Part shown: positions 42,426 to 64,000 of the stretch, piece after piece
Layout of the letters: each line of letters opens with the position of its first letter
Position numbering within the stretch: the first letter of the stretch is position 1
Origin: Acidobacteriota bacterium
GTDB taxonomy: Bacteria > Acidobacteriota > UBA6911 > RPQK01 > JAJDTT01
DNA: 64,000 bases
Reading direction: 5' to 3'
NCBI GenBank assembly: GCA_965263035.1
Contig: OZ253580.1
Span: 4,576,001 to 4,640,000, forward strand
Made by a program: the position numbers and the translations under genes
Notes under the pieces: model-generated
The model's database searches: none
Told to the model about the DNA's origin: nothing
Seen by the model: the letters and a program-made list of their open reading frames with translations, nothing else

Positions 42426-42599
42426 ATAATGTAGCCGAACTCTCACCTCTTGTAAAATGGTGTTCTACCTTCTCTGCCACGTCTGACTTCGTTCCTCTTC
42501 TGCCTCGCCGCGTCACCCTGCCGACTAAAACTAAGCGGTAAGCCCGACGGAGGAGGGGACAGTCACCTTCTCTATCTCTTCTCCAAGGCCACCGTGCCC

Positions 42600-43450: not shown

Positions 43451-45004
43451 ATGGGCAATGAGCAAGGTTTCTCTATCGTCGCACTCGACAACTTCATACG
43501 CGCGACACGCGACTCGGGCTACAAGGGTACGGCGAGCGCCGTGGCCGAACTAATAGACAACTCGCTGCAAGCGAGAGCTACCGAGATTTCGGTCAACGTG
43601 AAGGTAGACGTAGAACAGCGCGAATACCCGCTCGTGCTAACCGTACTCGATAACGGTACGGGGATGGGCGCGACGACACTCCGCACAGCATTACGTTTCG
43701 GCGGAAGCACACGGTTCGATGATCGCCTTGGCTTAGGCCGCTACGGAATGGGGTTGCCCAATAGTTCACTTAGCCAAGCCAAACGGGTCAACGTTCATTC
43801 CTGGGGATCGAGCCGTGGAGATGTATTACATTCGTATCTGGACGTCGACGAGATCGCCTCTGGCGCAATGACCGAGGTTCCAGAACCTCAAAGGGTACTG
43901 CGGCCGTCCTTTTTGAACGGACACGTCACCGGAACTGCTGTCACCTGGACTCGTTGTGACCGCTTGGACAACAGGCGGGTATCGACACTCACGAGGAAGC
44001 TTTTGTTCTCGCTTGGTCGCCAGTTTCGCTTTTTCCTGTGGGATGGCGTCTCGATCCAAGTTAATGGCGATGCAGTCGAACCGATCGACCCGCTGTTTCT
44101 GCATCCTCATTCGTGCTTCAGCGGAGCGGCTCAGTTCGGCAAGGATCTAGTGTACAGGATCGCGGCGGATCGCAATGACAGGCGCCGGACTGGCACCGTC
44201 CGGATCCGCTTTTCGGAACTTCCTGTCGGCGAGTGGTCAAAGCTGAGCAATAAGGAAAAGCGTGTCAGGCGTATTACAAAGGGTGCAGGTGTCTCGGTGG
44301 TTCGTGGCGGCCGAGAGGTGGACTATGGCTGGTTCTTTCTTCGTAGGAAGCGCCGGGAGAACTACGACGACTGGTGGCGTTGCGAGATACAGTTCGACCC
44401 GGTACTTGACGAGGCGTTCGGAATCACCCATACAAAGCAACAGATCCGACCCAGGCCACATCTGCGAGAGGCTTTGACTTCTGATATCGAGTCGGTGGCA
44501 CGAGTCCTAAACACGCGCGCTCGCAAGGCTCATCAGACCGTGAAAGTCGCCGAACGCTTCAGCGCGTCAGAGGAACGAGCCGCCCGAAAAGATGCCATGC
44601 TGACGCCTCTGCCTCGACATCGCCGTCCTCGGGACGAGCAGGTGCTCGCTGCCTTGGGGCTCACGATAGATCCACCACTGACAGAAGCCGGCTCGAACAA
44701 ACCGTCCACCGAATACAGAATTCTGTCTTCAGCACTCAGCGAGACGTCGTTCTTCAACTACGCGCGCGATGACGGACGGCTCGTGCTCATCGTCAATCCC
44801 GAACACCCTTTTTTCAAGGTTGTATACGGCAAGCTTCTCGATTCCGATTCTCCTCACGACATCGCGCTTCGATCACAGATTGATTTGCTGCTCCTCGCGG
44901 CAGCGCGTAATGAGGCCCTGCTGGACGACCAGCGGTCAATCGACGTAGCGGAATCTATGCGTAAAGGGTGGAGTGACACCTTGGCGACGTACCTGAGCGG
45001 GTGA
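43451..45004 (+). CDS. MORC-family GHKL ATPase (HATPase_c_3)
   Basis: RDSGY...AELIDNSLQA, LDNGTGM, GLGRYGMGL; S5-like region with FDPVLDEAFGITHTKQ; C-terminal VNPEHPF. Confidence 0.88.
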   Translation: MGNEQGFSIVALDNFIRATRDSGYKGTASAVAELIDNSLQARATEISVNVKVDVEQREYPLVLTVLDNGTGMGATTLRTALRFGGSTRFDDRLGLGRYGMGLPNSSLSQAKRVNVHSWGSSRGDVLHSYLDVDEIASGAMTEVPEPQRVLRPSFLNGHVTGTAVTWTRCDRLDNRRVSTLTRKLLFSLGRQFRFFLWDGVSIQVNGDAVEPIDPLFLHPHSCFSGAAQFGKDLVYRIAADRNDRRRTGTVRIRFSELPVGEWSKLSNKEKRVRRITKGAGVSVVRGGREVDYGWFFLRRKRRENYDDWWRCEIQFDPVLDEAFGITHTKQQIRPRPHLREALTSDIESVARVLNTRARKAHQTVKVAERFSASEERAARKDAMLTPLPRHRRPRDEQVLAALGLTIDPPLTEAGSNKPSTEYRILSSALSETSFFNYARDDGRLVLIVNPEHPFFKVVYGKLLDSDSPHDIALRSQIDLLLLAAARNEALLDDQRSIDVAESMRKGWSDTLATYLSG

Positions 45005-45007
45005 GTT

Positions 45008-47041
45008 GTGGATCTCTCGACACATAACGATTGGTTACCTCTGTCTCCATTGCTTGGCAAGTCTAATTCTGCCCATGCCATCTTCCGGGAATATGCTAGG
45101 CGACTATCAGATGCCATTGAGGATGACACCGGCATTAAGTCCCAGCGTTCGCTGGGCGAATCCGTTGCCATGGCACCTAGCGGGCAGATTCACCAGGCCC
45201 TTCGTGCGGCGCTCGGTGTGTTGATGGACCTTGCCCGGCAACGCTGGTCAATCCGCGTCACTGGCGAAGGCTTTGTCGAGGTCAAGCGTCCCGAGGGGGA
45301 GAGGATCGATTCCCTCCGGGAAAAGGCCAGAATTCGGCAGCAAGAACTTGTCAAACGTGACGAACAGCTCCGGGAACCGGCGACTCGGAGGTTCGTCCGC
45401 AGGATGGAGAGTAGTGTTATCTACGAAAACCAGCCGGTCTCGGTGTTTTCGTTGTTTCGAGATGGTCCCGAACTCGCCCACTCGTTGAGAAGTGCCCGCA
45501 CGCTGCCACCACACCGACGAGATGAAGGTCTTCGTGCGGCGCTGGATCCATACCTCCAGTTCGTCGACGACTCCGCTGCATGTGAACATACGGGCCTCCG
45601 CCTTCAGGACATCTGGCGGTATTTCCGTCATACTTGGTCCAACCAGTACACAAGCACCCCGGGACGCCGGATGGCATTTCTGGTCCGCGATCGTGCTCGC
45701 ACGTTTCACCCCGTCATGGGAATCGGTGCCATCGGCAGCCCGATCGTACAGATCCGGGAGCGCGACGTATGGATCGGTTGGGATGCTGGGACCTTTCTAG
45801 AATCTGTCGCGGAGGCGCCTTCTACCGAACTTGTGCCATGGCTTAGAAGAATCGTGGATCGTGCGATCAACGAACTCTTCATTGAAGACTTTCTGGAAGA
45901 GCAACTCCTCGACCGACGGGATCTCAAGGAGCCGTCGTTGGAGATAATCGCCCGCTTGAAGACCCATGGCACGAGGCAGCGGGCGCTGCATCACCGGTTC
46001 GTAAGCTCGCAGGAACATAAGTCTTGGCCGGAGGGTAACGAGAGAGCATGGAGGCAGCGAGCCCTGACACATCTTTACCGTAGCAAGCGCGCACTGTCCC
46101 TCTCCCAGCTACTACGTGCTCGCCGGACGTTGCGCGAATTCTTCGGAAAGCGACCTATTAGCACGTCCGTCCGTGCGTTCATTAGAAACCGCGAAGGACG
46201 TCGGACTGTGAGATCCATCCTGCGGAAGGCCAAAGCAGACCGCGTCGGCATCGCCATTGCCGACATTACCGTGTGCGGCGCTATAGAACCGTACAGCCAG
46301 ATTCTCGTCGGCAAGCTCGTTTCGATGCTGGCCGCGAGTCCAGAGGTGATACTCGCCTACCGTAACAAGTACTTGGAGCAAGAAAGCGAGATCGCATCGT
46401 CGATGGCCGGACGTCCTGTTATCCGGCCTTCGCATCTAGTTTTTTTGGGAACGACCTCGCTCTACGGTGTGGGCTCGAGCCAGTACAACAGGCTTAAGAT
46501 GCCAGCCGAACTCTTGGGTGGGCTTCCGGGCGAGCACCTCGAGTACCAGCACCTCGGCAAGTCGAAATCCTACGGCACGTCGCACTTCAGCACCCACACA
46601 GTCGATGCACTCGTCACGTTGGTTGAGCAGACCAGTAATGGCCAGCGCGTGAACAGCATCTTCGGCGAAGGGGTGAGCCCAAAGCTGCGAAAGGTTCGCG
46701 ACGGATTGGGCGTACTCGGACTTCGAGCCAGCGAACTACTTCAGCACGGCAGACAGAGGATCGTCTACGGAGTACGTCTCGTGCGGAACGTTCGGGAGTT
46801 TCTCCTGGGCTTAAATGAGGAACCCAACTACTTGTTTGACTTGACGGACCCCAAAAAAGGGACTGCTGTCATCATGGACTGGTGGACGAGACGGTGGCTA
46901 TCGAAACGTGTCATGAACGACGAAATTCTGGCACGCCTTGATGAGCATTCCCTCGTCCGACCCATTCGCCACGGCGCTCGCGTTCCCCTTCCACGAACCA
47001 GCCCCGAGCAGGGATCGTTCTTCGAGGATATTGAAGGCTAA
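45008..47041 (+). CDS. DUF4338 / Druantia DruA-like protein (long form)
   Basis: WRYFRHTWS...PGRRMAFLVRD, DITVCGAIEPYSQILVGKLVSML, TTSLYGVGSSQYNRL, GKSKSYGTSHF, VNSIFGEGVSPKLR. Confidence 0.8.
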   Translation: MDLSTHNDWLPLSPLLGKSNSAHAIFREYARRLSDAIEDDTGIKSQRSLGESVAMAPSGQIHQALRAALGVLMDLARQRWSIRVTGEGFVEVKRPEGERIDSLREKARIRQQELVKRDEQLREPATRRFVRRMESSVIYENQPVSVFSLFRDGPELAHSLRSARTLPPHRRDEGLRAALDPYLQFVDDSAACEHTGLRLQDIWRYFRHTWSNQYTSTPGRRMAFLVRDRARTFHPVMGIGAIGSPIVQIRERDVWIGWDAGTFLESVAEAPSTELVPWLRRIVDRAINELFIEDFLEEQLLDRRDLKEPSLEIIARLKTHGTRQRALHHRFVSSQEHKSWPEGNERAWRQRALTHLYRSKRALSLSQLLRARRTLREFFGKRPISTSVRAFIRNREGRRTVRSILRKAKADRVGIAIADITVCGAIEPYSQILVGKLVSMLAASPEVILAYRNKYLEQESEIASSMAGRPVIRPSHLVFLGTTSLYGVGSSQYNRLKMPAELLGGLPGEHLEYQHLGKSKSYGTSHFSTHTVDALVTLVEQTSNGQRVNSIFGEGVSPKLRKVRDGLGVLGLRASELLQHGRQRIVYGVRLVRNVREFLLGLNEEPNYLFDLTDPKKGTAVIMDWWTRRWLSKRVMNDEILARLDEHSLVRPIRHGARVPLPRTSPEQGSFFEDIEG

Positions 47042-47188
47042 AGGGTTGCTGGTTGTGAACCGAGTCCGTCCATTATGAAAACGTCCTGTAACGGATTTCG
47101 TGGTCACAATAACAGTGAGCCAGACGTCAACCCAGCCGACTAATTGGCAGATTACCGCAACTCCTGCATCTCTCTTTAGCCAGGATCG

Positions 47189-50100
47189 ATGACCATGTCT
47201 TACTCGGTCAGCATACGGGAGGCCGAAAGGAGCCTTGCGAGCCACTTTGCCAAGCTGCGCGACAGTCGCACCGGCCCGATCTTCTTTATCGAGCACGGTC
47301 TTTCCGAGCCAGACTCGCGAAAACTCCGTGACTTTGTCAGCCAGGCGGCGAGGTACCGGCTAATTCAGAGCGGATGGTGGCGTGAGTATCCTCTTCCCCT
47401 TCTCGTGACTGCAACCGAAGTGGGGTACAGATACCGCGGAACAGGTACGGATTTCTGGCCGAAGCTCGAATCGAAACTCAAGATAGACATCGGTGCAGCG
47501 GCACGCCAACAGGTGCGGGAACTCTTCGTAAGCTGCTCGGAATGGTATAGGGGTGCGAAACCGGCGGATACGCCGTGGACAACCAACTTCTGTCTCATCG
47601 CCTGGCCAATTACGCACGCTCTTGTTCCTGTGGAGTTTCATCGTCAGCTTGCGGCGGCTCTCGCGAACCTGCGTTTAAGCGCCTATTCACTTGACAATGA
47701 AGACCTCCACGCTGCGGTTCGGATCGCCGCAGGACAGCCGTCGGCACGCTTTCATACGTTCCTGGAGGACGCCAGCCTAGCCGTCCCAGTCATTCGCGCT
47801 TTGTTAGGCGAAGGGAATGGCGAGATCTCTCCGGGCTCAATCGATCGGATCGCAAAGGATCTGGAGTCGGACTCGGATGCACATCAGAACATCAAGATCG
47901 CGAAACAAGTCCAGCGCCGTCTTCAATCCCGCAAATCACGAGCGAACAAAACTATCGAACTGGTCGAGCCGGAGGCTGTCAAGGGAGTCCTTCAATTGCG
48001 AGTCCGTGAAGGAGACCGGATTGGGGTTGAGGCCCTGTTCCCGCGACGCGAGGGGCCTGAAACCGATCGGCTCCGACGAACACTTCGCAGACGCCGTTTC
48101 GCGCCTAAGCTCTGGGGGCTGACCTCCCAGGTGCCTAGCGAGAGGCTGTTTTCCGGCGTGCCCTTTCCAATAAACTTGCGGTCGTTACCGGACATTGGTG
48201 CACCCTTATTCCCCGGACTGCGCGAACTCGGGATTGAGAACGACCTTGTAATCACTCTAAATTCGTTTCAACTCAACTTCGAGTTGCCCCTACTATTCGC
48301 TGCAAATGGCGAGAGAAACCTAGCCCGCATGGTGCGTGGTTTCGATATTTCGGCGTATCGTGAATACTGGTTATTGGGAAAGCAGGGCACGCTTGAGTCA
48401 TTCACTGGAATTGTGCAGTTCAAGATAAACGAACCGTTCGTCTGCTACAGAGTGAAACCGCTCCAATCGGGTGTCCAAGAGGTGCTTAGGGGATTAGGAT
48501 ACACAGTCCGCCACGGCGTCTCGGTCTCGATCGCGGGTGCCCCTACAATTGACGAGCACGACGGTTTATCCCGCTTCAACGTAGGAGACGAGCGGATTGT
48601 GGTGCCCAGGCGGCGGCACTCGGCCGAGACGTTTGTCGAGTTTGGCGGCAAAACGGTCGAGTTGAACGATGACTTGGTCCGGGTACGCACAGGAGAAGGG
48701 AGACAACACTCTTTCGATCTACAGCCGGGGAACGTTATGGCAGGACCAGTTCGAAGGTGTACCGGCCGCCGCCACAACCGCCAAACATCCGGTTTGTTGG
48801 TTTGAGCTATCTGCAGATGAAATGACAGTGCAGGCACTTCTTGCAGGCAACATTTCTTTCGGTGTCCACGGACCAGCGCCGCTTGAGGGCCTAACAATAA
48901 CGCTGGAACTGGAGGCCGGCGGTCGGCGATCGGGTGTCTCCACCTCACTCGATCCGCTTCCCCATATGTTCCTCGCAGAGGACGAAATTTGGCTCAGCCT
49001 CCTCAACCCAGCAACTCGCGCACGCCTGCTGGAGGATCCGAGTCCGGTTCTGCACGCCCGTGTGGATTCTCTCGCTGCGGAATCGTGGACCCTTGAACAA
49101 CGCATTCGGCCATGTTGGTGGCGGGGCAGTCCATCCTCCCTCGTCCTTGAGAGCGAGCTTGGACCGCTGGACTATGGAGCAATCCCTATTTCAACCCCGG
49201 CTTCGCAACCGGTTCCAGCGGAACACGGTGCGGGATCCGACGCGGTTCTGCTTGCACCGTTAAGACCCGATAAATCGGTCCTCGGACCGGCCGCAAGCTT
49301 CGTTACATTTTGCGTTGCGCCCGAAAGAACCACTCTATCGTTGCCGCGAATAGAGAGCCCGAGGCTATGCCGATCCCGTCGGGGCAGGTCCGGATCTATG
49401 GGGGTAGAAGACCTCGTTGAAGCGTGGTTTCGGTGGTCTCTCGCGGAGGCCGATTCTCTAACTGCTCAAATCCGGAAGGCACAAGCAAGTTCCACACTAG
49501 ACCGTTGGCTCGCGGAACTCTCCTGCGGCGAAGTATGGGCGCGGCGTGAAACTTACATTAATGCTGGATTTCGCGATCCTTGGAAGCTGTTCGCCGACGA
49601 GTGCCGAAAGAGCCGACTTGGACTTGACGATTTCGTCGAACTTGGCGAACGTGACGAAGTCCAGGTCGTTCGATACGCTGAGGCCGAGATTCGGCGCACC
49701 CAACCGCAACTCTGGGTACGAGTTGGCCCGCTCCCACATCTAGATAATGACACGCGCAGATCCTTGCTAGACGACGACGAATACGCAGTCCTTGATGCAG
49801 CGTTTGAAGGAGGCTACCAGAAACTCGCCTCGAGATACCGAAGGGCAGGCAACGTCCGGTTGGCAAGGAAAATCGAACAAGCTGACCCAGGGGCTGGGCC
49901 GGATCAATGGGATCCGGTTCTCGATGCTGTTCGGTCGAAATGGGAACTCCACGAGCTGGCTGAGTTGCTGTACCCGACTGACACCGCACAGTGGCTGACG
50001 ACTCTTGACCTGACGCTGATGGCGCTCAACGATATCGCTGATGAATTACATCGCTGGGCTACCGCATCTCGTAACGCTCTCGCTGCCGATGTCCCGTCCC

Positions 50101-50270
50101 ACCAGGCTCTCATGGCAGTCCTCGCCATCTGGATCGCTCCAAGCACAGCGGTTAGTTTGGACTGGCGTGGTGCGCTCGACACTTTGGTTGCCGATAGATC
50201 GCTTTCCCGCGCAGTTCGATACCTTGCTTTAAGGGCCCGCAGCGCTCGCATTGAATTTGAATCGAAATGA
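47189..50270 (+). pseudogene. ~1026-aa hypothetical protein (possibly Druantia DruF-like) with one frameshift
   Basis: ORFs 47189-48805 and 48669-50270 join if one G is removed from GGG 48698-48700 (RTGEG|DNTLSIY). N-terminal FFIEHGL...ATEVGY...FW...IAWPITHA resembles my recollection of type II Druantia accessory proteins. Confidence 0.65.
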
Positions 50271-53200
50271 GAAACGCTTACACTGAACTCTGTCTGTCAG
50301 TGCAGGCATTGAGGCGGCAATTCGAAGGATTGCGTACGCCGCTCGCACCCGCGACCGGCGTTGCTGCATTTGTATACACCCACCAAGTAGCGAATGTCTT
50401 TCGCGTGCTGACCGACGTTCGGGTGCGGCACCTCCTGGCCGATGAAGTCGGTCTGGGCAAGACTGTCCAGGCCCTAATGATCCTCAATGCTCTCCGATAC
50501 CAAAGGAAGGATCTTCAGGCTCTCATTATCGTTCCGGATGCGCTCGTGCCCCAATGGCGCGACGAAATCACGATTCGGGCCCACTCCGTTCCAATCGGCG
50601 ATGAAACAGGTGGTGAGGGCCAGCAATACATCCGGTTGGCCTGGGAAGCCCAGTTGAAGAGGTCGGCTACTGGGCGGACTCGCGGCTGGACGCTTGCCGA
50701 CATCGATCCCGACAAATACGATATCCTTGTGGTCGACGAATTCCACCGCCTTCGCACGGACCTTCAGGAGCGCATCGCCCGGGTGGCGGATGGATTCGAA
50801 CATCTGCTGCTACTAACCGCGACTCCTTCATTTCAGGATGTCAAGCGGCATGCCCAACTGTTCACCCTTTTAGAGCCGGAACGCAGTTTTTTGGCCAAAA
50901 GGCGCGATGGGACAGACGGTGGCGTGGTCGAAGGCATTCTCAATCGGGACAGGCGCGAAGCATTGTCATGCACTCCTAAGGACCTAACTGCAGCCGCGCT
51001 GGCTCACTGTGCCTATCGACGCATCATCCGCACCAGACGAGCCGATTACGAGGGGGTACTACCCAAAAGAAAGCATACCCCTCGCAGAACGCGACCGTTA
51101 GGTGCTGAAGAAGAACGTCAGTCGCTGATGTGGAAGTACTTCAGGCGCCTCGACGACGTGCGCCTTGCAGTCGACCCAGTGAGATTGGCCAAACGTGTCG
51201 TCCTAAGTCCACCATCTCTTGAGCAGCGAGTCGACTTCCTACGTCGCAGGGGCCACGAACGAGAGGGCCTACTTGAGCGTGCGAAGCCTCTCGTTCACCG
51301 CACACAGGGCGACTCGCGGGCAGACGCGCTTGTAGATCTACTTGCCGAAATCTGGACCAAAGATGCATCCGAGCATGTCCTCGTGGCCGCGCAGGACAAC
51401 TTGACCGTCGACTATCTGTTTGACATCGTCCGGGCCCGGTTGCCACTCATAGGCCGGATTGGAAGCCGAGTGCCGCTAGTCGCGGCCCGAGTCAGGCAAG
51501 GAATGATGACCGAGGCCGTCGAGGATCTTGCCGGTTTCAAGAACGAAACAAATGAGAACCTCGAAGCGTTCCAGAGAGGGGATGCCCAAGTGCTGTTTGC
51601 TCCAGAAGCAGCACAGGTGGGACTGAACCTCCAGTGCGCACGGATACTGGTGCTCTACAGCGTACCCTGGCGGCCAGAAGAGGTGGACCAGTGGATCGGC
51701 CGGCTGGACAGGATTGGCAATGCCGTTGCCTTTGCGCCGGAAGAAGAGACCAAAACCATCGACATCTACACCATTGCACAAAAGGGGTTGGTCGATGATA
51801 AAGTCGTGACCGTTCTGCAACGGTTCCATGCGTTTGAGCGTAGCGTGAACCTGGATGGGACTCACCTGAAGAAAGTGTCTCAGACGATCGAAACTGCCGC
51901 GCTGAGACCTGAACAAGCGAACTGGAACGCAATTGAGAACGCGACCGAAACGATGGCTTACGAGGACGAGATTAAAGAATTGGATTCGGATCTCTGTCCG
52001 CACCTTCCCTGGAATGTTAAGTGGGCGACGGAAGTACGGAGAAGCCTAGCGAACCTTGAACCAGCTCCGCTGGCACTTGAGTCGTTCCGACGATTTACTG
52101 CCGGGCCGGGTTCGTGGGACCGTGCTTTTGAAGGTATGTTGAAACTCCTCGCTCGATCAAAGGAGTACGCCATATGGCTGAATGAAGACCCGTACGGGGG
52201 GAAGTTCCGATCACTTTGGTACCGGTTCGGACCTCATGGAATATACGGAGTCAGGGAAGTACTCTCCAAGGTTTTGTTCTCTTTCGGACAAGATCCTGGC
52301 AGCGGCCGAAGCCCCAGGCACGCTCACGCATACATCACCCGGCGTGGGGACATCTCATCGCCTCCTAGACGTCACGTGACATTGACCTTCGACGAGCAAG
52401 AGTTTCGTCGCCCTCTCCACTTCGTGAGCTTCGGGAACGCCCTTCACGACGAAATTGTCACCGGCTGGCAGCCGAACTCGGCCGAGACATACTCGGCAGA
52501 CATCTACCTTTCGGGAGACCATCCTTTCTTTGGATACGGAGAGACCGGGATCTACATAGTTCGGCTGTCGGTTCTCGACCCGGCGTCATGTCTACAAGCT
52601 GCGACTGTCGTCGAACGGGCGTTAGGAGCCATTTTCGAGGCATCTGTCCGAGTTTCGTCAAACCATTCGACTACTTTAATGCGTCTCTTCCAACGCGCAG
52701 TGCGATGCGGAATTGAGGCGGATATCCGATGGGTACGGGGAACTCTGACCGCGGAACTGTGCATCCAAGGGCTAAAGGCGACGCAGGGTAGTTGGAAAGT
52801 CGCTACTATTGATGAAGTAACCGCGCTTTTTAATCCGCTCATCCATTCGAGCACTGGAGTGCCGTTGGTTGCCGAATGGACGCCGTCGGAACGGTTAAGA
52901 GATCGTATCAGCGGAATGCTGGAACAGCTACGCCACTTGGACCAAAATACGGCCCAGAATACCTGGGGTTCTCGATTGGCGAATTTAAAATCAGCTCTGG
53001 ACATAAGACGCGAGGTGATCCGCAACGAAGCCCAAGACGCCGTCGAGTTGGCTGAATTCAAATTGGCCAAAACCCGAATCGACCTAGGCACGGCTCTCGC
53101 GCGGGGCATTCAAGGACAGATAACTCGCGCGCGAAACTTGCGTGATATAGCGGCGGACACTGTAGACATGACGAGAGTTCTTTGGGAACAGCGAATTGCT

Positions 53201-53287
53201 TGGCTTGAGGAGTGCTGTGCGGCGGTTCCGACGGCTTTGCCTGAGGAACGGCTTACTGCGGTGCTAAGAGTTAGCCGGCTGAACTAA
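50267..53287 (+). CDS. SNF2/RapA-like SF2 helicase
   Basis: LLADEVGLGKT, VVDEFH, LLLTATP, GLNLQ, PWRPEEVDQWIGRLDRIG; ATGA overlap with the upstream gene. Confidence 0.9.
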   Translation: MRNAYTELCLSVQALRRQFEGLRTPLAPATGVAAFVYTHQVANVFRVLTDVRVRHLLADEVGLGKTVQALMILNALRYQRKDLQALIIVPDALVPQWRDEITIRAHSVPIGDETGGEGQQYIRLAWEAQLKRSATGRTRGWTLADIDPDKYDILVVDEFHRLRTDLQERIARVADGFEHLLLLTATPSFQDVKRHAQLFTLLEPERSFLAKRRDGTDGGVVEGILNRDRREALSCTPKDLTAAALAHCAYRRIIRTRRADYEGVLPKRKHTPRRTRPLGAEEERQSLMWKYFRRLDDVRLAVDPVRLAKRVVLSPPSLEQRVDFLRRRGHEREGLLERAKPLVHRTQGDSRADALVDLLAEIWTKDASEHVLVAAQDNLTVDYLFDIVRARLPLIGRIGSRVPLVAARVRQGMMTEAVEDLAGFKNETNENLEAFQRGDAQVLFAPEAAQVGLNLQCARILVLYSVPWRPEEVDQWIGRLDRIGNAVAFAPEEETKTIDIYTIAQKGLVDDKVVTVLQRFHAFERSVNLDGTHLKKVSQTIETAALRPEQANWNAIENATETMAYEDEIKELDSDLCPHLPWNVKWATEVRRSLANLEPAPLALESFRRFTAGPGSWDRAFEGMLKLLARSKEYAIWLNEDPYGGKFRSLWYRFGPHGIYGVREVLSKVLFSFGQDPGSGRSPRHAHAYITRRGDISSPPRRHVTLTFDEQEFRRPLHFVSFGNALHDEIVTGWQPNSAETYSADIYLSGDHPFFGYGETGIYIVRLSVLDPASCLQAATVVERALGAIFEASVRVSSNHSTTLMRLFQRAVRCGIEADIRWVRGTLTAELCIQGLKATQGSWKVATIDEVTALFNPLIHSSTGVPLVAEWTPSERLRDRISGMLEQLRHLDQNTAQNTWGSRLANLKSALDIRREVIRNEAQDAVELAEFKLAKTRIDLGTALARGIQGQITRARNLRDIAADTVDMTRVLWEQRIAWLEECCAAVPTALPEERLTAVLRVSRLN

Positions 53288-53292
53288 GCTAG

Positions 53293-54315
53293 CTAACTGA
53301 GCATGGACCAAGGATCAAGCGCACCATCGTTCACTCTCCAGGACCATCCGGATCGTCGTTGCCCCAACAAGTCCATCACTGCGACGAATTGGTCTGGGGC
53401 AGGGAAAGTCAACTGAACAACACCGTTCCGTCTCTCGACTCTCTCTTCAACTCTGGTTGACTTACCCCGCGCTAGCAGAGCCCAGCACCACTCGTCCGTG
53501 TCATATAGGTCCAGTGCACGAAGATGACCACCGTCAATCGCCACGATAATCGGGTGCCAATGAGCTTGGTTGTATCCGCGTCGATATGCGCACCAGATTC
53601 CATCCACTGCGCCTTCGGTCCAGCGACCCTCGCATGCCTCCGAATTGTGCCTTCCAAAATACTTTCCGGGGTCGTCGCAAACTAACCGGACCTCAGCGTC
53701 GTTTCCCAACGGCAGGCCTTCTTCCTGTACTGCGGAGACGAGTAGTTCCCAGAACTGGGCCAGACTTAGCTCGTCGCTACGGATCAGCCTGGCCTCTCTC
53801 CGCATCGCATGCAGGAGATACTCGTTTGGTCGTAACCACTCTTCAAGCGAAGTCTCGCGAACTCCTGCTAAGTGCAAGTCTGCTTGCTCTTGTTCGTCCC
53901 GAACGAAGATACGCCGCACAATATCCCTTCTCCAGGTATCCGGGAACTGTTCGACTATCCCGTCGGGAACAGGCTCTACGCCGAGCAGGGTGGCAGATTC
54001 GTACCCGCTTCGGATCCATTGCGGCCGTGCCGGGGCGATATATGTCTCGCCGTCAATGTGAACCTCAACGCATTCCTTTAAGCGCACCATCTGTCTCAAG
54101 ACCTTCGCCAGTTTCCCGGACGCTTCGTCCCTGAGGCCAGCGGCCTCCAGTTGGGTTCTGGCATAGCTCAGCACTTTTATCCGTGTACTCAGTCCCCAGC
54201 GAGCCAACGGTAAACGTAACAAATCTGCCAGAGCTCGAATCGAGATCTCACCTGCTTCCGAGATCAGACCAATTTCGCGCGCATAAGATTCGCGCGTGAT
54301 CGACTCCAAAGTCAT
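53293..54315 (-). CDS. Hypothetical protein (possibly DruG-like), last gene of the DruE operon
   Basis: 340 aa, Trp-rich; start overlaps the NERD-helicase stop (ATGA 54312-54315); GGAG RBS. Confidence 0.65.
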   Translation of the reverse strand: MTLESITRESYAREIGLISEAGEISIRALADLLRLPLARWGLSTRIKVLSYARTQLEAAGLRDEASGKLAKVLRQMVRLKECVEVHIDGETYIAPARPQWIRSGYESATLLGVEPVPDGIVEQFPDTWRRDIVRRIFVRDEQEQADLHLAGVRETSLEEWLRPNEYLLHAMRREARLIRSDELSLAQFWELLVSAVQEEGLPLGNDAEVRLVCDDPGKYFGRHNSEACEGRWTEGAVDGIWCAYRRGYNQAHWHPIIVAIDGGHLRALDLYDTDEWCWALLARGKSTRVEERVERRNGVVQLTFPAPDQFVAVMDLLGQRRSGWSWRVNDGALDPWSMLS

Positions 54316-54497
54316 ATCTCCGCCTCCGAGACCAGTGAAGCTTTTTCAAGCACTGCCAGACACTCGTCCCCGTGGGCAATGGCGATCAGCAGAAACCTTG
54401 CGCGGGTGCATGCAACGTATAGGTCCTTCTTTTGGAACAGCTTTCCAAAATCACCCAAATCGTAGAGCAGAATGACATCTGCCTCAAGCCCTTTAAA

Positions 54498-56493
54498 CCC
54501 AGATTATTCACCACGCAAACATAAAATGAGCAAGCGTGCCCGTCATGTCGAGTCGGATCAGAGGGTTACCGGATACCCACAGAAAACGGCTGAGACCCGA
54601 CCTGGGTGAAACGCTATATTTGTTTTCAACGTCGGTTTAACCCCAGGATTCAAGTGGGGCCGAAACCCAAGCATTTCCACGGTTTTCGTCCCCTCCAAGG
54701 GCGGCATAAAGAGACGGCGTGCCCGTCATTTGTGGTATGATTATAGTGCTAAGAAACAACCACAATAAACGGAGCACGCCATGCCTGAGACGATACCGCA
54801 GATCCGGCCCTCATTCAACCGATCCCTCCGCCTCGAGACCCGCCCCGAGTTGCTCAGTGCGGACACGGGAGCCCTGGTGCAACGGGAGCTGATGGAGCGC
54901 AGCGGCCTCATCGACTGGTTGACCGAGCGGTTGCACGATCCGCGACACCCGAGTTCGATCCGCTATCCGCTGTCGGATCTGCTGCGGACTCGACTCCTGC
55001 TGCTGGGTCAGGGCTGGCGCGACCAGTCCGACGCCGACCGCCTGCGTCAGGATCCGAGCTTGCGGGTGGCGAGCCAGACCCGTCGGGGCACGGCGGCCTT
55101 GGAGGAGGGCCAGGGGCTGGCATCGCAGCCGACCTTGTCCCGACTGCTGGACACGCTCAGCCGGGAGGAGAACCTTTCGGTCCTGCACCAGGCGGTGACG
55201 GAGCTGGCGTGCCGTCGGATCGAGATGATCGAAGGCCGGCGGCGAAAACGGGGGAAAAAGACCCCACGGAAGAAGAGACGGAAAAAGACGATGTACCTGG
55301 ACGTGGACGGTCTCCCGGTCGAGGTCCATGGGCATCCCCCGGGAAGCGAATGGAACGGATACTATCGCCAGCGGATGTACCACGGGTTGGTGGCGAGTTG
55401 TGCCGAGACGGGGGACCTGATCGACGGGGAGATTTTTCCGGGAGCCAGCTACCTGGGGAAAAAGGCGCTGAAGTTGACGCTGCGGGTGGTGGACCGCTGT
55501 CGGGGGCGTCTGTGCGGCTCGATGATCGTGCGGATGGATGCGGGGTTCCCGGAGCCGGGGCTGCTGAAGGGGCTGGAGTCGAGAAGCGTGCCCTATATCG
55601 CTCGAATCCGCAAGAATGAGGTCCTGAACCGGATGGCGAAGCCCTACTTGACCCAGCCGGCGGGGCGATCCCCGGATGCACCACCGAAGCTCTGGTTCCA
55701 TGAGCTGACCTACCAGGCGGGGACGTGGGATCGGGCGCGCCGGGTGGTGCTGGTGGTGCGGGAGCGACCGGGGGAGTTGTATCCGGATCATTTCTGGTTG
55801 CTGACGAGCCTGAGCCGGAAGCGTTATGAGGCGGAAGCGCTGCTGACACAGTATCGAAAGCGGGGGAAGGCGGAAGGGCACATGGGGGAGTTGATGGACG
55901 TGCTCGATCCGGCCTTGTCCTCCGCGAGCCGGCCCAAGACGCACTACCGGGGGAAGCCGCTGAAGCCGGGAGCGAAGCCGGAAGCGACGACGGAGGCCGG
56001 CGTTCGACCCCACAACGAAGTCTTGTTCCTGCTGAATCTGCTGGGGTACGAGATCCTGCACCTGGGTCGGGTGCTGATGGAGCAGGCGACGCGTCGGGGC
56101 TGGAGTCTGCGTCGTTTTCGCGAGCGGATGTTGCGAGTGGCGTCTCGGGCGCTGCGCCAGGGGAGGCGATTGATTTTCGTCATCAGTCAAGGGGCGACGG
56201 ACTGGAAGCGGTTGTGGAAGAGACTGGCGCGGGTGTCCTGGGCGCCGGGATAGCGGACGGAGGAGGAATCGGGCCCGTGGAAGGGACCGAAACGGTGGGG
56301 ATTTCTCACCGGAGAGTCAATCTGTCGGCGGGTGACGGTCCCCCTGGCCGGAAAACGGTTTATGACTGGTTCAATCGTCCTGTTTTCGAGCCGATTCAGT
56401 CGAATCGACAGAGCTTCAAGAGAAACCGGGCTGCGACCGCACGAAAACGCCGGGTTGGAAGCCCTTATCAACATGTCCCATGAATAATCTGGG
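54498..56493 (+). mobile_element. Complete IS1380-family element (type B)
   Basis: Perfect 13-bp inverted repeats CCCAGATTATTCA; 5-bp target duplication TTAAA (54493-54497, 56494-56498). Confidence 0.93.
54781..56253 (+). CDS. IS1380-family transposase
   Basis: LSADTG, LASQPTLSRL, LDVDG..VEVHG, VRMDAGF, YRKRGKAEGHMGE. Confidence 0.92.
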   Translation: MPETIPQIRPSFNRSLRLETRPELLSADTGALVQRELMERSGLIDWLTERLHDPRHPSSIRYPLSDLLRTRLLLLGQGWRDQSDADRLRQDPSLRVASQTRRGTAALEEGQGLASQPTLSRLLDTLSREENLSVLHQAVTELACRRIEMIEGRRRKRGKKTPRKKRRKKTMYLDVDGLPVEVHGHPPGSEWNGYYRQRMYHGLVASCAETGDLIDGEIFPGASYLGKKALKLTLRVVDRCRGRLCGSMIVRMDAGFPEPGLLKGLESRSVPYIARIRKNEVLNRMAKPYLTQPAGRSPDAPPKLWFHELTYQAGTWDRARRVVLVVRERPGELYPDHFWLLTSLSRKRYEAEALLTQYRKRGKAEGHMGELMDVLDPALSSASRPKTHYRGKPLKPGAKPEATTEAGVRPHNEVLFLLNLLGYEILHLGRVLMEQATRRGWSLRRFRERMLRVASRALRQGRRLIFVISQGATDWKRLWKRLARVSWAPG

Positions 56494-58057
56494 TTAAAGG
56501 ATCTCGATGTAGTAACTAGGACTCCCCTGCCGTCGTACCAATCTTCCGAGTTCGTAATCAGAGGCACTGCTTTCACTTTATCTACGCTTGCAAGACTACC
56601 TTTTGCTTTCGATCTTGGCCCTATCAATGCGATTTGTCGTGGTTTGATGCCACCGTCAGTGAAAAGCCGCCTTAGTTCCCGCAGCACAAGATCATATTGT
56701 TCCCGAGAAGATCTGGCTCGGAGTATTCGCATGGTCGTGCCAGCCGGTGCGCGAGCAAAACTTCGGGATTCCAACTTCATTAACGAAGCGCTCGCTGCTG
56801 CGATTTTTCGGGTATTCCTGCAATTGATCTTTAGCGAAAATGTCGTATCGAATTCGATCGGGGGACGTTCGACCTCGCCTCGGAGAGACTGATTCGGGTC
56901 CATAAATGCGTAGACCGGGCTATCTTCCCCTCGGAGTAGAGATTGCGTCAGAGCGTACCACCAGCCTAATGAAAAGTCCTGAGCCTCATCAACGACCATA
57001 GCGCCGTACCTAACATCGATTCCTCTTATGTCATGATCTAGAATCGCCTGTTCCAGTAAGTCTGGAACTTCTTCGTCCCAAAACTTAGGCGTCAACGATC
57101 CTCCCTGTGCAGGGCGAAATCTCACTCCAACTTTGGCAGCCATTTCCTTCGCTAGCGAATGAAAGTTCTGCACCGTAAGAAAAGATCGATACTCTCGCGT
57201 CCGAGGGTCTCCTTCCACCTGTCGGCGAAGCCACGCAGCAAGGGCACTGTTGTAGCAGATGAACAGCGTGCGAATGCCAGCACGTGCGAATGCGAGCGCC
57301 CGTTCCAGGGCAAGAAAAGTTTTTCCGGACCCCGCGACCCCTTCCACCAGCACCCTATCCTGAATGTAAAGGCCCTCGAATACCTGCGCCTGTTGCTGTG
57401 TCAGTTCCAACAGTATCTCGGACGCGGACGCAATGTCTGGACCGATTCTGCGGATGATCTTGAACTTGGGCATTAGGCAGTCGTAAAGCAAAATCCGATA
57501 TTCGTCGCCTCGCAACTCCCGCAATCCAGTGCGCCAAGCCCTGAATGCCCTCATGAGCGCCTGATCGATGAACGGCAAGTGGCGTCGAGAAAGCACGATC
57601 GCTGATTCAGCATGTGGTGGTGGCGTGCCGCCATAGTCAGCGTGCGGGAACATGACTGCATAGCCGTAGACGAAATCCCCCCTGTTTATCCTGTTTCCCG
57701 AACGCTGCTGGACAATGTCTAGAAGCGCGTGCATATTCCGTTGAGCCTGACGGAATGGGTCTTGGAACTCTCTTGGACCATGAGCGCTGTGCCGGAACCA
57801 CCGGCCTCCTTCATATCGGATGTCCTGTCCGCCCTTGACCTCAAGCACCAAAAGGCCGTGGCGAGGGTGAAGGACCACGAAATCAGCCTCGCCCTCAGCA
57901 ATAGCTGCGTTTTTCCTCCAGCGACGGAGCCAGGGATACGAGTGAAGCACGACGAAATCATCGGAAAGCTGGTCGCGAAGGGCTTTGTAAACGGGGACCT
58001 CAGAACTGTGTTCGAGTTGAGCGGTATCGAAGTTGGGAATCATCCGTGCCATAAGAC

Positions 58058-61000: not shown

Positions 61001-64000
61001 GGGATCCGCTGTCGGATCAAGAGATTGCGTCTTTCCCGAGCAATATCGATTGCCGACCCGAACTGTGCAGAGGTGTCCGGCAATCGGGTTACTCGGCTGT
61101 GCGGTAGTGCATCTGTTGCAACGCCTCCACGAGATGCCATCGTGGACGACCCGCAGTTTGGCTGCACGCAGAACAAACCCGTTCGCGGTATGCGAAACAC
61201 CAAGAGTGCGGGAGACGAACTTCACCCAAGGAGGCTCGTGGCCCCCTCTTCGGCGAAGATTTCTGCTAAACCAAGGAGACCCGACCAAATCCCTCAAGAT
61301 TTTGGGAAACGTGCCCTTCACTCGACGGATCTTTGCTCCGGATTTCGAATCCAACCATTCGCTGGGCGTCGTGGGCAATAATAGGGCATGCCTCGCGACG
61401 GCATCCGCCACCCATAGGTTCAGCAGGGCCTGACGTAGCTCTTGGGTACTTAGGTGACTGGGGCTAGGGGGAACGGGTAACTGCGAGAGGACACGCTCGT
61501 CCGCAGCACTGAGACTCGCCCGAATTGCTGCAAGCCCCAACGCACTCAGTCCGGTGTGGCGGTCGTTGAGCACCGGATAAACGGCGAGCATCAGGGACTT
61601 GTTCGTTCGGAGATGGTTGAATTCACCGGATGCCTCAAGAAAATCTTGCTTTTCGGCCGGCGGGTTGGCGATCAGCAATTCCCGAATGGCAGTAAGGTCT
61701 TCATCAAAGTGGGGTGCTTGGATTGGACGCAAGTTGACACCGTGAAGTACACATCCAGCAAGAAGAGCAGCATACGAATGGTCGAGGGCCACGGGGGTTG
61801 AATAGAGGCGCTCTAACTCGGTAATGCCCGCAAGAAGCAACGGACGTACAGCGTCCTGCATGGAGTACTGCTGGAGTCGACCTGCCAGGCGTGAAGCTGC
61901 CTGACGACCGTCCGAGAAGATGAGAGACTTCCTGCCCCTTAGTGGCGTGTGAACGTTTGCCCGAGGTGGCTGCTCGAGTAGTTGGGCAGAAATGATTTCC
62001 TGGAAAGGCTGGTCACCCTTAGTAACGTGATTTGATATGCTCATGGTGCCGTTGGCTCCGCAAACCGGGCACTTCGCAAACATTCCAGGATCAGTGGTAT
62101 TCCCACCCAGTGGGGAGAGCCAGACCTCACGGGCCGCGCTATTTCCAGAACCGAGTCGTCCGGACACCGGATCAAGGAATTGAAACCGGGCACCAGATCC
62201 GTCGGGAGGGTCCTCAAGCAACAGGTGCACGGGTTTGATGACACCCGTGTATTCGTCATCGATCGAATCCATTTCCTCGGTCCAGAGATATTTGGGATTG
62301 TCGGCGTCGAATGCGTAAGCGTTCAAGTATGCTGTTCCGCAGTCCCGGCAGGTGTGGATTTCAAACACTCGTGCACCACACTCGCAGTTGCGCCTTGGCT
62401 GGGGATAAAGAACTCCTGTCGGGGGTAGTTCGTCTCCCCATTTATCGCGCAGGTGGGTCGGGACCTCACTACACGTCGGGTCGGCGCACGCCCACAATCC
62501 GGGTAGTCCTCGAAGAAACATGTGCACACGTGCCGCCAACAGAGGCCGCCCCTTACCGCGACGCGCCATCGAAGCCAGTTCAATCAGCCTGTCTGTCGCC
62601 TCACGGGACAGACCTGGGTCTACAGCAGGGAAGAGGCGCGGTCCGAGTGCATAGACAGCCTGTGCCGGGCCGGCACCGGACGGGTCTGTTTCGTTATCTC
62701 CGGCGGCTTGCGCCCCACTTGTGAGGTTGCGTAAGCGGCCCGTGACCGGCAATTGACTCAGGCAACTATGGAGAATTCTCGCGACCGGATCCTGGCTGCT
62801 TTCCAACTGCACACCGGATGACTCGTTTATGCGAAGTTCCGGTACTCCGCCGACGTTGACCCGCACGGATTCCGTGCTTGTGCCGCCGACGATTGCGATC
62901 ACGTCGCGCGGCAGTTCCTCTGGTGCTGGGGAGAGACGAAAGCCAAGGTTGATTATTTCACACTCGGAAGTGAGGCATCGCAAATCTGCATTGGTACCAA
63001 CTGGCCCCACGACCGTAAGTGAAGCATATTCTCTCGGTGCTGCAAGATTGAGGACCGGCATTACAGCTTGTATGCGTGCTTCTAGGTCGTCTTTACGTAG
63101 CGCCTGGAGGTCTACGGACACGAGTGCGATTGCCATCGCTTGGTCGCCCGGTCCCGAAGGGCGCGCGGCACGCTTGTTGCCGGTTAACGGCACAAATCCC
63201 GACACTGGCTTGCCGGTTAAGTCGGCCGCGAAGTCGCAAGCGGCATCCGGATTAGAGAAGGAAGCACTCGTGCAGACAACCTGTATCTGCCCCATAGACA
63301 GACCAAGGCGATTTCGGAGACGCCGAATCAGCATCCCCACCTCCGTTCCCTGGGCTCCTCGATAAAGGTGTGCTTCATCCAGAACAAGCATCAGTCGCTG
63401 GCTCGGATTGGCAGCATAGTACTCCGCAGTCGTGCTAAAGATCTCGCGCTCGACAGGACGCAGCAACATGTATTCGAGCATTGAGTAATTTGTCACTAGG
63501 AGATCGGGCACACCCTCGTGGACTTCTTGTCGAAGAAACAGTTCCGGATCCTCTGGTCGCTCGATGGTACGTACCCACCGGCCCTCTTTTTTCCACCTAC
63601 CCCTCCCGTACCAAGAGGAAATACCATCCTCAATTCCCGATCTACTGGCAGGTTTAGAGGGCCACTTGCCTCGCTTCTGAAGTTCGGCAATCAATGCTCC
63701 GGCCTCAAGATCTGTCGTGGCTTGGTGTTCGAGGTCCAAATAGAACTTCAGACTCTGTAATCGTTCCCGATGCTTATCCGTACTCTCTTTTCGGCGCCCC
63801 GGATATAGAGTTCGCCCGGTATATCGGGCGAACTTCATGGGACGCCCGGCGTGCTCTTCGAACCACGTAGCCAACGTGCGTTGCCCAAAAAGAAGACGCA
63901 AGCGCCCGAGCTGGTCATTGACCAAGGCATTCATGGGATAGAGCAACAAGGATCTCAAGGCGCGCGTTCCGAAGCTATTGCAAACCCTCGCCTCCTCCGC
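58058..64000 (-). CDS. druE: DruE-like large DEAD/DEAH helicase with DUF1998 (MrfA-like Zn-binding) domain; 5' end outside window
   Basis: YPMNALVNDQ, RYTGRT, TNYSMLEYMLLRP, LDEAH, FSDGRQ, TTTMEVGIDIG, NYQQRAGRAGRR, LPRYAFP, YDLTPGGAGF...CNCTHSCYECL; several CxxC pairs; frame open to 64000 and Walker A not in window. Confidence 0.85.
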   Translation of the reverse strand, partial: AEEARVCNSFGTRALRSLLLYPMNALVNDQLGRLRLLFGQRTLATWFEEHAGRPMKFARYTGRTLYPGRRKESTDKHRERLQSLKFYLDLEHQATTDLEAGALIAELQKRGKWPSKPASRSGIEDGISSWYGRGRWKKEGRWVRTIERPEDPELFLRQEVHEGVPDLLVTNYSMLEYMLLRPVEREIFSTTAEYYAANPSQRLMLVLDEAHLYRGAQGTEVGMLIRRLRNRLGLSMGQIQVVCTSASFSNPDAACDFAADLTGKPVSGFVPLTGNKRAARPSGPGDQAMAIALVSVDLQALRKDDLEARIQAVMPVLNLAAPREYASLTVVGPVGTNADLRCLTSECEIINLGFRLSPAPEELPRDVIAIVGGTSTESVRVNVGGVPELRINESSGVQLESSQDPVARILHSCLSQLPVTGRLRNLTSGAQAAGDNETDPSGAGPAQAVYALGPRLFPAVDPGLSREATDRLIELASMARRGKGRPLLAARVHMFLRGLPGLWACADPTCSEVPTHLRDKWGDELPPTGVLYPQPRRNCECGARVFEIHTCRDCGTAYLNAYAFDADNPKYLWTEEMDSIDDEYTGVIKPVHLLLEDPPDGSGARFQFLDPVSGRLGSGNSAAREVWLSPLGGNTTDPGMFAKCPVCGANGTMSISNHVTKGDQPFQEIISAQLLEQPPRANVHTPLRGRKSLIFSDGRQAASRLAGRLQQYSMQDAVRPLLLAGITELERLYSTPVALDHSYAALLAGCVLHGVNLRPIQAPHFDEDLTAIRELLIANPPAEKQDFLEASGEFNHLRTNKSLMLAVYPVLNDRHTGLSALGLAAIRASLSAADERVLSQLPVPPSPSHLSTQELRQALLNLWVADAVARHALLLPTTPSEWLDSKSGAKIRRVKGTFPKILRDLVGSPWFSRNLRRRGGHEPPWVKFVSRTLGVSHTANGFVLRAAKLRVVHDGISWRRCNRCTTAQPSNPIAGHLCTVRVGNRYCSGKTQSLDPTADPVFVSRKGHYRRHFERLESEPGYAPHPFVAAEHSAALNASGDRTDVARAEWHELRFQDLDVEGPESRREGPIDVLSCTTTMEVGIDIGSLTAVALRNVPPGRANYQQRAGRAGRRGSALSTVITYCGADSHDQQFYADPAGMVSGPVPVPTLNLDNIEIVRRHCFALLMSLFQQSAIPDLGEGREVSANVFDSLGTLRDFQQGHRDEFSYAGLKSWLLDTRSSLRETLTDIVPTNVLDKTPDFIDEVSDSLLAALRSVGAGPLRAHEIAAQTPPSNDDILNEVTSRGGRGGVVSLDWGERIDLGPESYVESESGLEESPEQGMDPEKLLDRLFDRGVLPRYAFPTDVVTFHIFDKAQSTERRAKLRYTPQLGLNQALSSYAPGREVWVNGERHYSFAVWTPFRSRECWRAWNRSKVYFECSRCGYAKVEPRGDDFFVDQVLNCPACGTEGSLGVGMQWIRPPGFAHPVDIEAELPLADSPTPTRSTRAKLSAPFTDTGSTSASETAANGAGYDIWTEKQRLVLTNTGSRDPWKPGFLHCPLCGRTEPNGWSAGELRQRGGHLKPFPDHFPHGSSCNGYSTKVVFGNEFETDIGLIRFRLAGKAKLTPGSTVAEIVLTTVAEALSTAAARLQDIEESDIGAEYRVAMTEGGRTGKEAEVYLYDLTPGGAGFVRAAVGDPVALFDSALNRLESCNCTHSCYECLRSYKNRWDHKHLHRTLGAALLRHVVHGEIPTIPEVDERRMLHSLALDLVESGQLVEEIGGGIRLVDYDRYVILGHPLIPSQPGTVAGRVLATDHDVYVVDSLLVDNALPAAVRAVTGVDNTTPEGPSVPEFLQEDPEGCPVYTSSMFEYDARPSPLATVRVDGVPSDAFLVQLTRPTLERMPKALFPRGAWVVFVPTEESTIVNVGNDRLPRLLTSRIGAFNATGERWTFGLPRKREDKVHILYYSYEAPRSEMARQSEIRVVGKAFGVFIDGALERIR

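Follow-up and report, generated by a model that had tools for sequence, protein, structure and literature searches.

A conserved seven-gene locus, probably derived from Druantia type I, that is inactivated in an Acidobacteriota genome

Introduction

Does a gene cluster that joins Druantia-like proteins to a GHKL ATPase, an SNF2-family translocase and a NERD-UvrD nuclease-helicase form a single defence system, and does such a system fall within the described Druantia types? This question was raised by a locus in a stretch of 64,000 nucleotides (nt) from an Acidobacteriota bacterium (assembly GCA_965263035.1, contig OZ253580.1, positions 4,576,001 to 4,640,000), hereafter termed the window, in which seven genes form two convergent operons, four on the plus strand and three on the minus strand, with their 3' ends 5 base pairs (bp) apart (53287/53293). 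An earlier annotation made without database searches (the sequence-only reading) had taken the cluster for a candidate new defence system or subtype. As described below, our analysis indicated that the cluster is probably a copy, horizontally acquired and now inactivated in this genome, of a conserved defence system of seven genes that derives from Druantia type I, and in which a Druantia core (a long DruA, a likely remote DruD relative of 340 amino acids (aa) and a type I DruE) would have been supplemented with GHKL, SNF2 and NERD-UvrD genes.

Druantia type I is said to have been defined by Doron in 2018 as DruA-DruB-DruC-DruD-DruE. Types I-IV are distinguished within Druantia, and a published DruE tree gives four clades.

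Gene content and organization

The features of the locus, in window coordinates, are as follows.

43451..45004, plus strand: GHKL (MutL/MORC-like, HATPase_c_3) ATPase, 517 aa; PF13589
45008..47041, plus strand: long-form DruA (DUF4338, GNAT-like), 677 aa; PF14236 and PADLOC DruA1
47189..50270, plus strand: C, a ~1024-aa protein of no known family, frameshifted here; open reading frames (ORFs) and orthologues
50267..53287, plus strand: SNF2-family translocase, 1006 aa; SNF2-rel_dom and Helicase_C
53293..54315, minus strand: 340-aa protein, likely a remote member of the DruD superfamily, with an N-terminal winged helix
54312..54497, minus strand: 3' fragment of the NERD-UvrD gene, C-terminal 62 codons; C-terminal ends of the GajB and RTasNERD-Hel models
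54498..56493, plus strand: IS1380-family insertion sequence (IS), transposase at 54781-56253, flanked by the TTAAA duplication
56494..58052, minus strand: 5' part of the NERD-UvrD (superfamily 1, SF1) nuclease-helicase gene; NERD PF08378
58058..64000 in the window, minus strand: DruE (YprA/MrfA-family superfamily 2 helicase, MZB domain), 2106 aa; PADLOC DruE1

The ORF map reproduced the seven genes, their strands and every junction given by the sequence-only reading, including the convergent gap. The GHKL and DruA genes are separated by 3 bp, the end of the C gene and the start of the SNF2 gene share an ATGA overlap, as do the start of the 340-aa gene and the end of the NERD-UvrD gene at 54312, and a 5-bp gap lies between the NERD-UvrD start (58052) and the DruE stop (58058). 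The DruE gene runs beyond the window, its start codon being at window position 64378, 378 nt past the end. The locus is single-copy in the source genome. A tRNA-Gln called by ARAGORN at 50156-50234 lies inside the C coding frame and was taken as a false positive.

The domain calls made from the letters alone (GHKL, DUF4338, SNF2, NERD-UvrD and DruE) were confirmed by protein scans against Pfam, PADLOC (5027 models) and NCBIfam. The GHKL protein matched PF13589 at 77 bits and stayed far under the cut-off for MzaB (78.5 bits against a cut-off of 850 in NCBIfam, 52 bits in PADLOC); all 10 aligned orthologues share its N-box, G1 and G2 motifs, and residues 200-517 gave no credible Pfam match. MORC proper combines GHKL with an S5 domain carrying a MORC-specific motif, and "MutL/MORC-like GHKL ATPase" is the safe name for the present protein. 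DruA matched PF14236 at 112 bits (cut-off 27) and the PADLOC model DruA1 (PDLC00001) at 662 bits over model positions 59-664 of 675, and was 27% identical to the canonical 413-aa DruA; DUF4338 is termed GNAT-like in a passage of PMC10853773. For the SNF2 protein, the nearest named relatives were DpdE, BrxH, DrmD and RapA, all far under the family cut-offs (DrmD at 77-96 bits, with the NCBIfam score of 96 bits set against a cut-off of 610); SNF2 motifs I and II are kept in 19/19 orthologues, and the C-terminal half had no credible Pfam match. The NERD-UvrD protein carries a NERD domain (PF08378, 44 bits) and UvrD/AAA_19, and matched RTasNERD-Hel (176 bits) and "NERD+UvrD" (112 bits) in PADLOC; all 19 of its orthologues retain the NERD acidic/EVK motif together with helicase motifs I and II, and the 3' fragment aligns to the C-terminus of intact orthologues of 576-581 aa. 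DruE matched DruE1 (PDLC00013) at 1286 bits and MZB (PF09369) at 48 bits, and showed 34% identity to canonical type I DruE with ~160 extra C-terminal residues; no credible Pfam match was obtained for its C-terminal 207 aa. Across all aligned orthologues, GHKL, SNF2, DruE, the UvrD core and the NERD nuclease keep their ATP-binding or catalytic motifs, and judged by these motifs the enzymes of the system are predicted to be of the active type. In the Pfam scan, a methyltransferase domain was found in none of the seven proteins.

Conservation of the two operons as one unit

Loci were collected in two reciprocal ways. In the first, an alignment of the 340-aa family was used on a one-genome-per-species collection and yielded 20 loci from Acidobacteriota, Pseudomonadota, Myxococcota and Sumerlaeia; in the second, C served as the seed, the best 80 of 304 metagenome relatives were taken, and counts were made over 34 close loci. 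Partners were counted by profile searches in only those loci whose contig reached far enough, with the following results (present/testable).

DruE: 19/19 in species genomes; 15/15 in metagenome loci
NERD-UvrD: 20/20 in species genomes; 16/16 in metagenome loci
SNF2: 19/19 in species genomes; 17/17 in metagenome loci
C: 19/19 in species genomes; seed of the metagenome search
340-aa gene: seed of the species-genome search; 17/17 in metagenome loci
DruA: 16/16 in species genomes; 23/25 in metagenome loci
GHKL: 12/13 in species genomes (L017 without GHKL); 14/15 in metagenome loci

The two convergent operons are one conserved unit, recurring far beyond chance. The sequence-only reading had named a chance juxtaposition as the alternative to be checked, and the operons were found together in the 20 species genomes and the 34 close metagenome loci. 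The exact gene order of the window recurs in 14 species-genome loci, and the coupled gene junctions are conserved as well, the 3' ends of the 340-aa and SNF2 genes overlapping by 8 nt in many of the loci. Among the rearranged loci, DruA lies upstream of DruE in L013 with all modules kept, a diverged DruA lies on the other strand in L017, and a mobilizable Leisingera plasmid (L024) carries all modules in a different order.

The placement of the genes in two convergent transcription units could also mean that two separate systems stand side by side, namely a MORC/GHKL plus SNF2 restriction-like operon and a DruE plus NERD-helicase operon. Such a division would agree with the MORC + SNF2 operons described alone in PMC2292703, with the GHKL-DruA pair, which has been relocated as a whole in L013 and L024 and which L017, L033 and L075 either lack or have exchanged for other genes, and with distant relatives in which the C-SNF2 pair occurs with DrmA/DrmB in place of DruE (L105). 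The hallmarks of Druantia, however, are split across the operons, DruA being in one and DruE with the DruD-like protein in the other, and the DruE operon is accompanied by C and SNF2 in 19/19 and 17/17 testable loci. In many loci the 3' ends of the operons either abut or overlap by 8 nt, and in the co-directional relatives L057, L085 and L098 the series C-SNF2-(DruD-like)-DruE looks like one operon. Considering these points, two separate systems appear improbable, and it is highly probable that the seven genes act as one unit in defence.

In several relatives (L009:17071-18156, L015:17071-18138, L020:8416-9486, L011:10320-11600 and L013:335-1501), DruA is followed by an optional eighth gene, which is absent from the window's genome; its product of ~355 aa has no Pfam match and is 67-83% identical between loci. 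Separately, a second, longer GHKL ATPase (638-641 aa) was seen to adjoin the system at L015:2-1918 (Corallococcus) and L024:9578-11503 (the Leisingera plasmid). At L075:1-9163, three proteins stand in place of the GHKL-DruA pair, namely a 1238-aa DruA with a fused SspF/DndF-like region, an SspG-like protein and one of 1359 aa that gave weak DndH/mad8 matches, an arrangement that ties DruA to Dnd/Ssp restriction modules and fits the GNAT-DndF fusions mentioned in PMC10853773.

Relationship to Druantia type I

As a control, the canonical type I locus on Ralstonia plasmid NZ_CP012941 was scanned and matched DruA1-DruB1-DruC1-DruD1-DruE1 at 508-2300 bits, the canonical DruB matching PDLC00005 at 674 bits and the canonical DruC matching PDLC00006 at 854 bits. 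In the window locus, only DruA and DruE among the type I proteins matched PADLOC models. In bit scores, which are not a tree, the window DruE reached 1286 on DruE1 and at most 462 on the DruE2, DruE3 and DruE4 models. PADLOC, in which the DruE2-4 models were seen, presumably also has models named DruM, DruF, DruG, DruH and DruL; at E up to 0.01, no locus protein matched such models for DruM, DruF or DruG (type II), DruH (type III), or DruF or DruL (type IV). The proposal that the locus combines parts of several Druantia subtypes is contradicted by these results, DruA and DruE both scoring as type I. The same reading had treated type IV as a system with an Snf2-like helicase; this does not hold either, since PMC8565338 gives DruE + DruF + DruL as the PADLOC definition.

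The locus shares with type I a DruA (DUF4338), a DruE that is best on the type I model, a likely DruD-superfamily protein of ~340 aa and a product of ~1000 aa in the DruB + DruC position. It differs in that DruB and DruC are not detectable, in that its 677-aa DruA has extra N-terminal and internal segments, in the presence of GHKL, SNF2 and NERD-UvrD, and in its seven genes in two convergent operons in place of one co-directional five-gene operon. An ordinary DruABCDE locus with diverged DruB and DruC, and thus nothing new, would account for the strong matches to the DruA1 and DruE1 models and for the DruD link described below; the 675-position DruA1 model, moreover, fits the long DruA end to end, indicating that such DruAs were already in the PADLOC training set. 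On the other hand, none of the proteins of this locus or their orthologues matched the DruB1 and DruC1 models on which the canonical proteins score so highly, the GHKL, SNF2 and NERD-UvrD genes are conserved and fall outside the type I definition, the convergent arrangement is not that of type I, and Druantia combined with GHKL or MORC was not found in the literature outside the supplementary tables of Doron 2018, PADLOC and Bell 2025. An ordinary type I system is thus the least probable of the alternatives considered here.

The sequence-only reading was upheld in viewing the locus as a candidate new system or subtype to the extent that it is coherent, related to Druantia, not covered by the PADLOC type I-IV models and not found in print; what did not stand is its composition from several subtypes. 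Its statement that a MORC ATPase and a NERD-UvrD protein occur in no described type likewise agreed with our literature search, in which no such description was found. Where "NERD" appears alongside Druantia in PMC12458937, it refers to TALON. The seven-gene layout is apparently not yet described in print.

Affinities of the C and 340-aa proteins

C had no match in Pfam, PADLOC, NCBIfam or PDB sequences (the C family against PDB chains gave 0 matches at E up to 10). An AlphaFold2 model of the L004 orthologue displayed helical ends and tandem beta-sandwiches in the middle, and Foldseek against PDB retrieved nothing for it at E up to 0.001. The DruB models were matched neither by the 17 C-family sequences scanned nor, even at E up to 10, by the locus proteins, and the DruC models were likewise unmatched by both sets. 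C was rejected as a detectable DruB/DruC homologue, hhalign against the canonical DruB and DruC showing no similarity. In L101, L108 and L111, a C-like protein (956-1014 aa) is immediately followed by a bona fide DruD (330-545 bits) and a DruE1 match (2071 bits), and in L111 it directly follows a DruA fragment that was weakly detected (21 bits). By its position, C appears to hold the place of DruB + DruC in canonical type I.

The 340-aa protein is likely, on profile evidence, a remote relative of DruD and not a member of the same family. Its Leisingera homologue (L024) matched the DruD model at E 1.3e-5, 4 of 21 members of the 340-aa family matched DruD models alone, and when the family profile was searched against 1.84 billion representatives, 28 of the 55 distant full-length matches matched only DruD models, the best at E 2.6e-11 over nearly the whole model. 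Against PDB chains, the family gave 0 matches at E up to 10, and Foldseek with the structural model retrieved nothing from PDB and BFVD at E up to 0.001; VIA matches of the model were taken up by the winged helix and gave no assignment for residues ~120-340. One further protein, P0368 (388 aa), was seen to combine a C-terminal segment of DruE (DruE1 positions 1534-1707) with the C-terminal half of a member of the 340-aa family, and may be a miscalled or fused gene.

Comparison with DISARM, ARMADA and MORC operons

DISARM is composed of DrmA, DrmB and a methyltransferase (DrmMI/MII), with DrmD or DrmC/DrmE. The window locus resembles it in pairing a YprA-family helicase with an SNF2 (DrmD-like) translocase, whereas it has neither a methyltransferase nor a PLD nuclease and its helicase is a single-chain DruE, not a split DrmA/DrmB; DrmA models gave weak partial matches of at most 47 bits in the window locus. 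A closer tie to DISARM was found in L105 (800-15921), where a distant C-SNF2 pair is divergent from a GajB-like UvrD, DrmA (698 bits), DrmB (281 bits) and NERD-UvrD. C thus recurs as a partner of YprA-family helicases, with SNF2 in some cases and without it in others. As a side observation, L105 and the similar loci L079-L084, L087, L089 and L097 have a DISARM-type helicase with the same accessory module, a methyltransferase not being in view; within this group the PADLOC scan covered L105 only.

As outlined in PMC12458937, ARMADA type II comprises a BrxHII-like SNF2 protein (ArmA), a PglX methyltransferase (ArmB), a YprA-like helicase (ArmC) and a RelE-GajB-like UvrD helicase (ArmD), all of its genes being required. 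The window locus has in common with it an SNF2 translocase, a YprA-family helicase and, encoded directly after the latter, a UvrD-like SF1 helicase bearing a nuclease domain at its N-terminus. In contrast to ARMADA type II, it is without a methyltransferase or RelE domain, its nuclease is NERD (PD-(D/E)xK), its YprA helicase is of the Druantia I kind, and nothing in ARMADA corresponds to GHKL, DruA, C or the DruD-like protein. With the MORC/paraMORC + SWI2/SNF2 operons, the locus shares a GHKL ATPase and an SNF2 helicase in one operon and a nuclease gene nearby. Those operons, described by Iyer, Abhiman and Aravind in 2008, are predicted to be restriction-like; they have HNH or EcoRII-like nucleases, often with methylases, and unlike the present locus none described in the available part of PMC2292703 contains DUF4338 or a YprA helicase.

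Inactivation in the source genome

In this genome the system has been switched off by lesions in two of its genes, one an IS insertion and the other a frameshift, and the copy is a decaying one that no longer works. The NERD-UvrD gene is interrupted by a 1996-bp IS1380-family element with terminal inverted repeats and a 5-bp TTAAA target duplication, whose 490-aa transposase matched NCBIfam transpos_IS1380 at 227 bits and PF13701 at 222 bits. The source genome holds ~16 full-length copies of this element (95-100% identity), in which it is in active expansion; the insertion in the NERD-UvrD gene looks recent, because one of these copies is 100% identical. Approximately 4 further IS1380-family copies with an internal deletion of ~245 bp, as well as fragments, were also observed there.

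In the C gene, a net +1 nt near 48696 produces two overlapping ORFs (47189-48805 and 48669-50270). The hypothetical protein of 1026 aa called from the letters alone is thus not one ORF in the window, whereas C is a single ORF of ~1000-1050 aa in at least 14 orthologues. An intact 1024-aa C protein, P0178, is 99.6% identical to both window halves. Logan contigs of runs X6 and X8, from other studies, are without the extra base, and one X8 contig connects 54492 to 56494, so that the IS and one TTAAA copy are absent. Logan contigs of runs X1 and X2, in turn, match the window across the frameshift and extend into both IS ends. Both lesions are real and specific to this strain, and intact alleles exist elsewhere.

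A programmed frameshift in C was rejected, the orthologues being single ORFs and the sister populations being without the extra base. An assembly error behind the frameshift and the insertion is unlikely as well, since the X1 and X2 contigs show both, though the window itself may derive from one of the two. Broken copies of the system also occur in L010, L011 and L023.

Genomic context and mobility

The GC content of the locus is 56.3% against 62.1% for the genome, which is under the 1st percentile of 20-kb windows. Of 401 genomes sampled from the phylum, 2 were found to contain the 340-aa protein, and within the genus it was found in 1 of 4 further genomes. Two IMG/VR contigs are carriers, one of them with all seven genes and predicted to be viral. 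On the patchy spread, the foreign GC content and the carriage on a plasmid, the locus was probably acquired horizontally and is rare but widespread.

These features also bear on the idea that the genes constitute a DNA repair, chromosome maintenance or anti-plasmid machine borne by a mobile element, and not an anti-phage system. Housekeeping relatives exist for YprA/MrfA, UvrD, SNF2/RapA and MutL-like ATPases, and no phage test of the system is on record. The patchy occurrence, the GC content foreign to the source genome, the carriage on a plasmid and a predicted viral contig and the position beside a type I restriction-modification (R-M) system in a defence island, however, speak against it, as does the repeated inactivation in the window and in three other loci, which fits accessory conflict systems and not housekeeping. 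A role other than anti-phage defence is accordingly very improbable.

The type I R-M system and IS remnants adjoin the locus. Upstream in the window, the R-M genes are as follows.

30787-32850: HsdM
32682-34301: HsdS
34310-35542 and 35430-37316: HsdR ORFs

HsdR is probably another frameshifted defence gene. Just upstream of GHKL, a fragment of the same IS1380 family and a DDE transposase remnant were noted (41924-42429, 42668-42940). A 1091-aa DEAD/ResIII helicase with a 233-aa partner lacking a Pfam match lies at 25781-29754, and may be a further defence gene of the island. Past the window, at L002:1842-4169 (window 64842-67169), a TonB-dependent receptor appears as two in-frame ORFs with a stop codon between them; together with the split HsdR, this interrupted gene suggests many pseudogenes in the source genome.

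Long-form DruA was also observed on two plasmids, of Haloplanus (L028, NZ_CP098517) and of Hymenobacter (L029, NZ_CP114768), with an FtsK-like translocase and other unassigned proteins; on the archaeal plasmid L028, DruA is divergent from two genes, of 484 aa and 611 aa, after which comes a DruE-like helicase. The hidden Markov models of C and of the 340-aa family had no match on the Haloplanus plasmid, the Hymenobacter plasmid or the canonical Ralstonia locus, and L028 and L029 may represent another undescribed DruA/DruE architecture.

Weighing of the evidence

Several points weigh against a defence system derived from Druantia type I. Its defensive role is argued from kinship and context, and the link of C to DruB + DruC is one of position, hhalign giving E 0.69 against DruB and E 0.44 against DruC, at which similarity is not detectable. 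The 340-aa protein of the window gave 0 matches to DruD models and 0 in PADLOC, and its family aligned weakly by hhalign with the Ralstonia DruD (E 0.004, probability 8%). The absence of GHKL from L017 and L033, and the failure to find DruA in L055 and L073, mark these two genes as less fixed than the other five, and many of the metagenome loci are near-duplicates (e.g. L035, L036, L037 and L067), that is, kin and not independent. No self/non-self marker is evident, because a methyltransferase domain is missing from the seven proteins. The supplementary tables named above possibly list such loci as type I, and run X1 or X2, if it is the source sample, is not independent of the window in its support for the lesions. 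Set against the conserved gene set, the type I scores of DruA and DruE and the signs of mobility, these points leave derivation from Druantia type I as the probable explanation.

Proposed mechanism

Type III DruE is reported to be a 3'-to-5' helicase that engages single-stranded or forked DNA, and the preprints consulted solve only the two-gene type III Druantia. By analogy with this enzyme, the DruE of the present locus would load on single-stranded or forked DNA of replicating phage and unwind it. Since type I DruE carries at its C-terminus a Vsr-like nuclease domain for which inactivity is predicted (PMC12458937), NERD-UvrD, whose gene lies 5 bp downstream of that of DruE, would supply the cutting and degrade phage replication intermediates; whether it is the effector we regard as an evenly balanced question. 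The DruD-like winged-helix protein would act as an adaptor linking the partners, and GHKL, DruA, C and SNF2 may form a DNA-scanning and licensing module. Such a module would parallel the SNF2 + methyltransferase pairs of DISARM and ARMADA, whereas the window locus is without a methyltransferase. Changes in N6-methyladenine have been reported in one preprint for type I Druantia without a methylase gene. That DruA sets a mark is a rather doubtful proposal.

We tentatively propose, with somewhat less than even confidence, that the locus represents an undescribed Druantia type in which a type I core (long DruA, DruD-like protein and DruE) recruited a MORC-like GHKL clamp, SNF2, a NERD-UvrD effector and a 1000-aa scaffold. 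C, SNF2 and NERD-UvrD might then be a portable module serving either DruE or a split DrmA/DrmB, and like ARMADA the locus would be a "missing link" between Druantia and DISARM, the second of its kind. Since a GNAT-like protein is present and a methyltransferase is absent, self and foreign DNA might be told apart by a non-methyl mark or by DNA structure alone.

Implications

Carriage of the system may come at a cost, as hinted by the repeated natural knock-outs in the window and in L010, L011 and L023. The variant shows which parts of type I are kept (DruA, the DruD-like protein and DruE) and which are exchangeable, DruB + DruC giving way to one 1000-aa protein, with or without SNF2, and it singles out a separate nuclease-helicase as an effector candidate that can be tested. 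Through the C-SNF2-NERD-helicase module it ties Druantia to DISARM and ARMADA, and it gives annotation tools a gene set that is currently missed.

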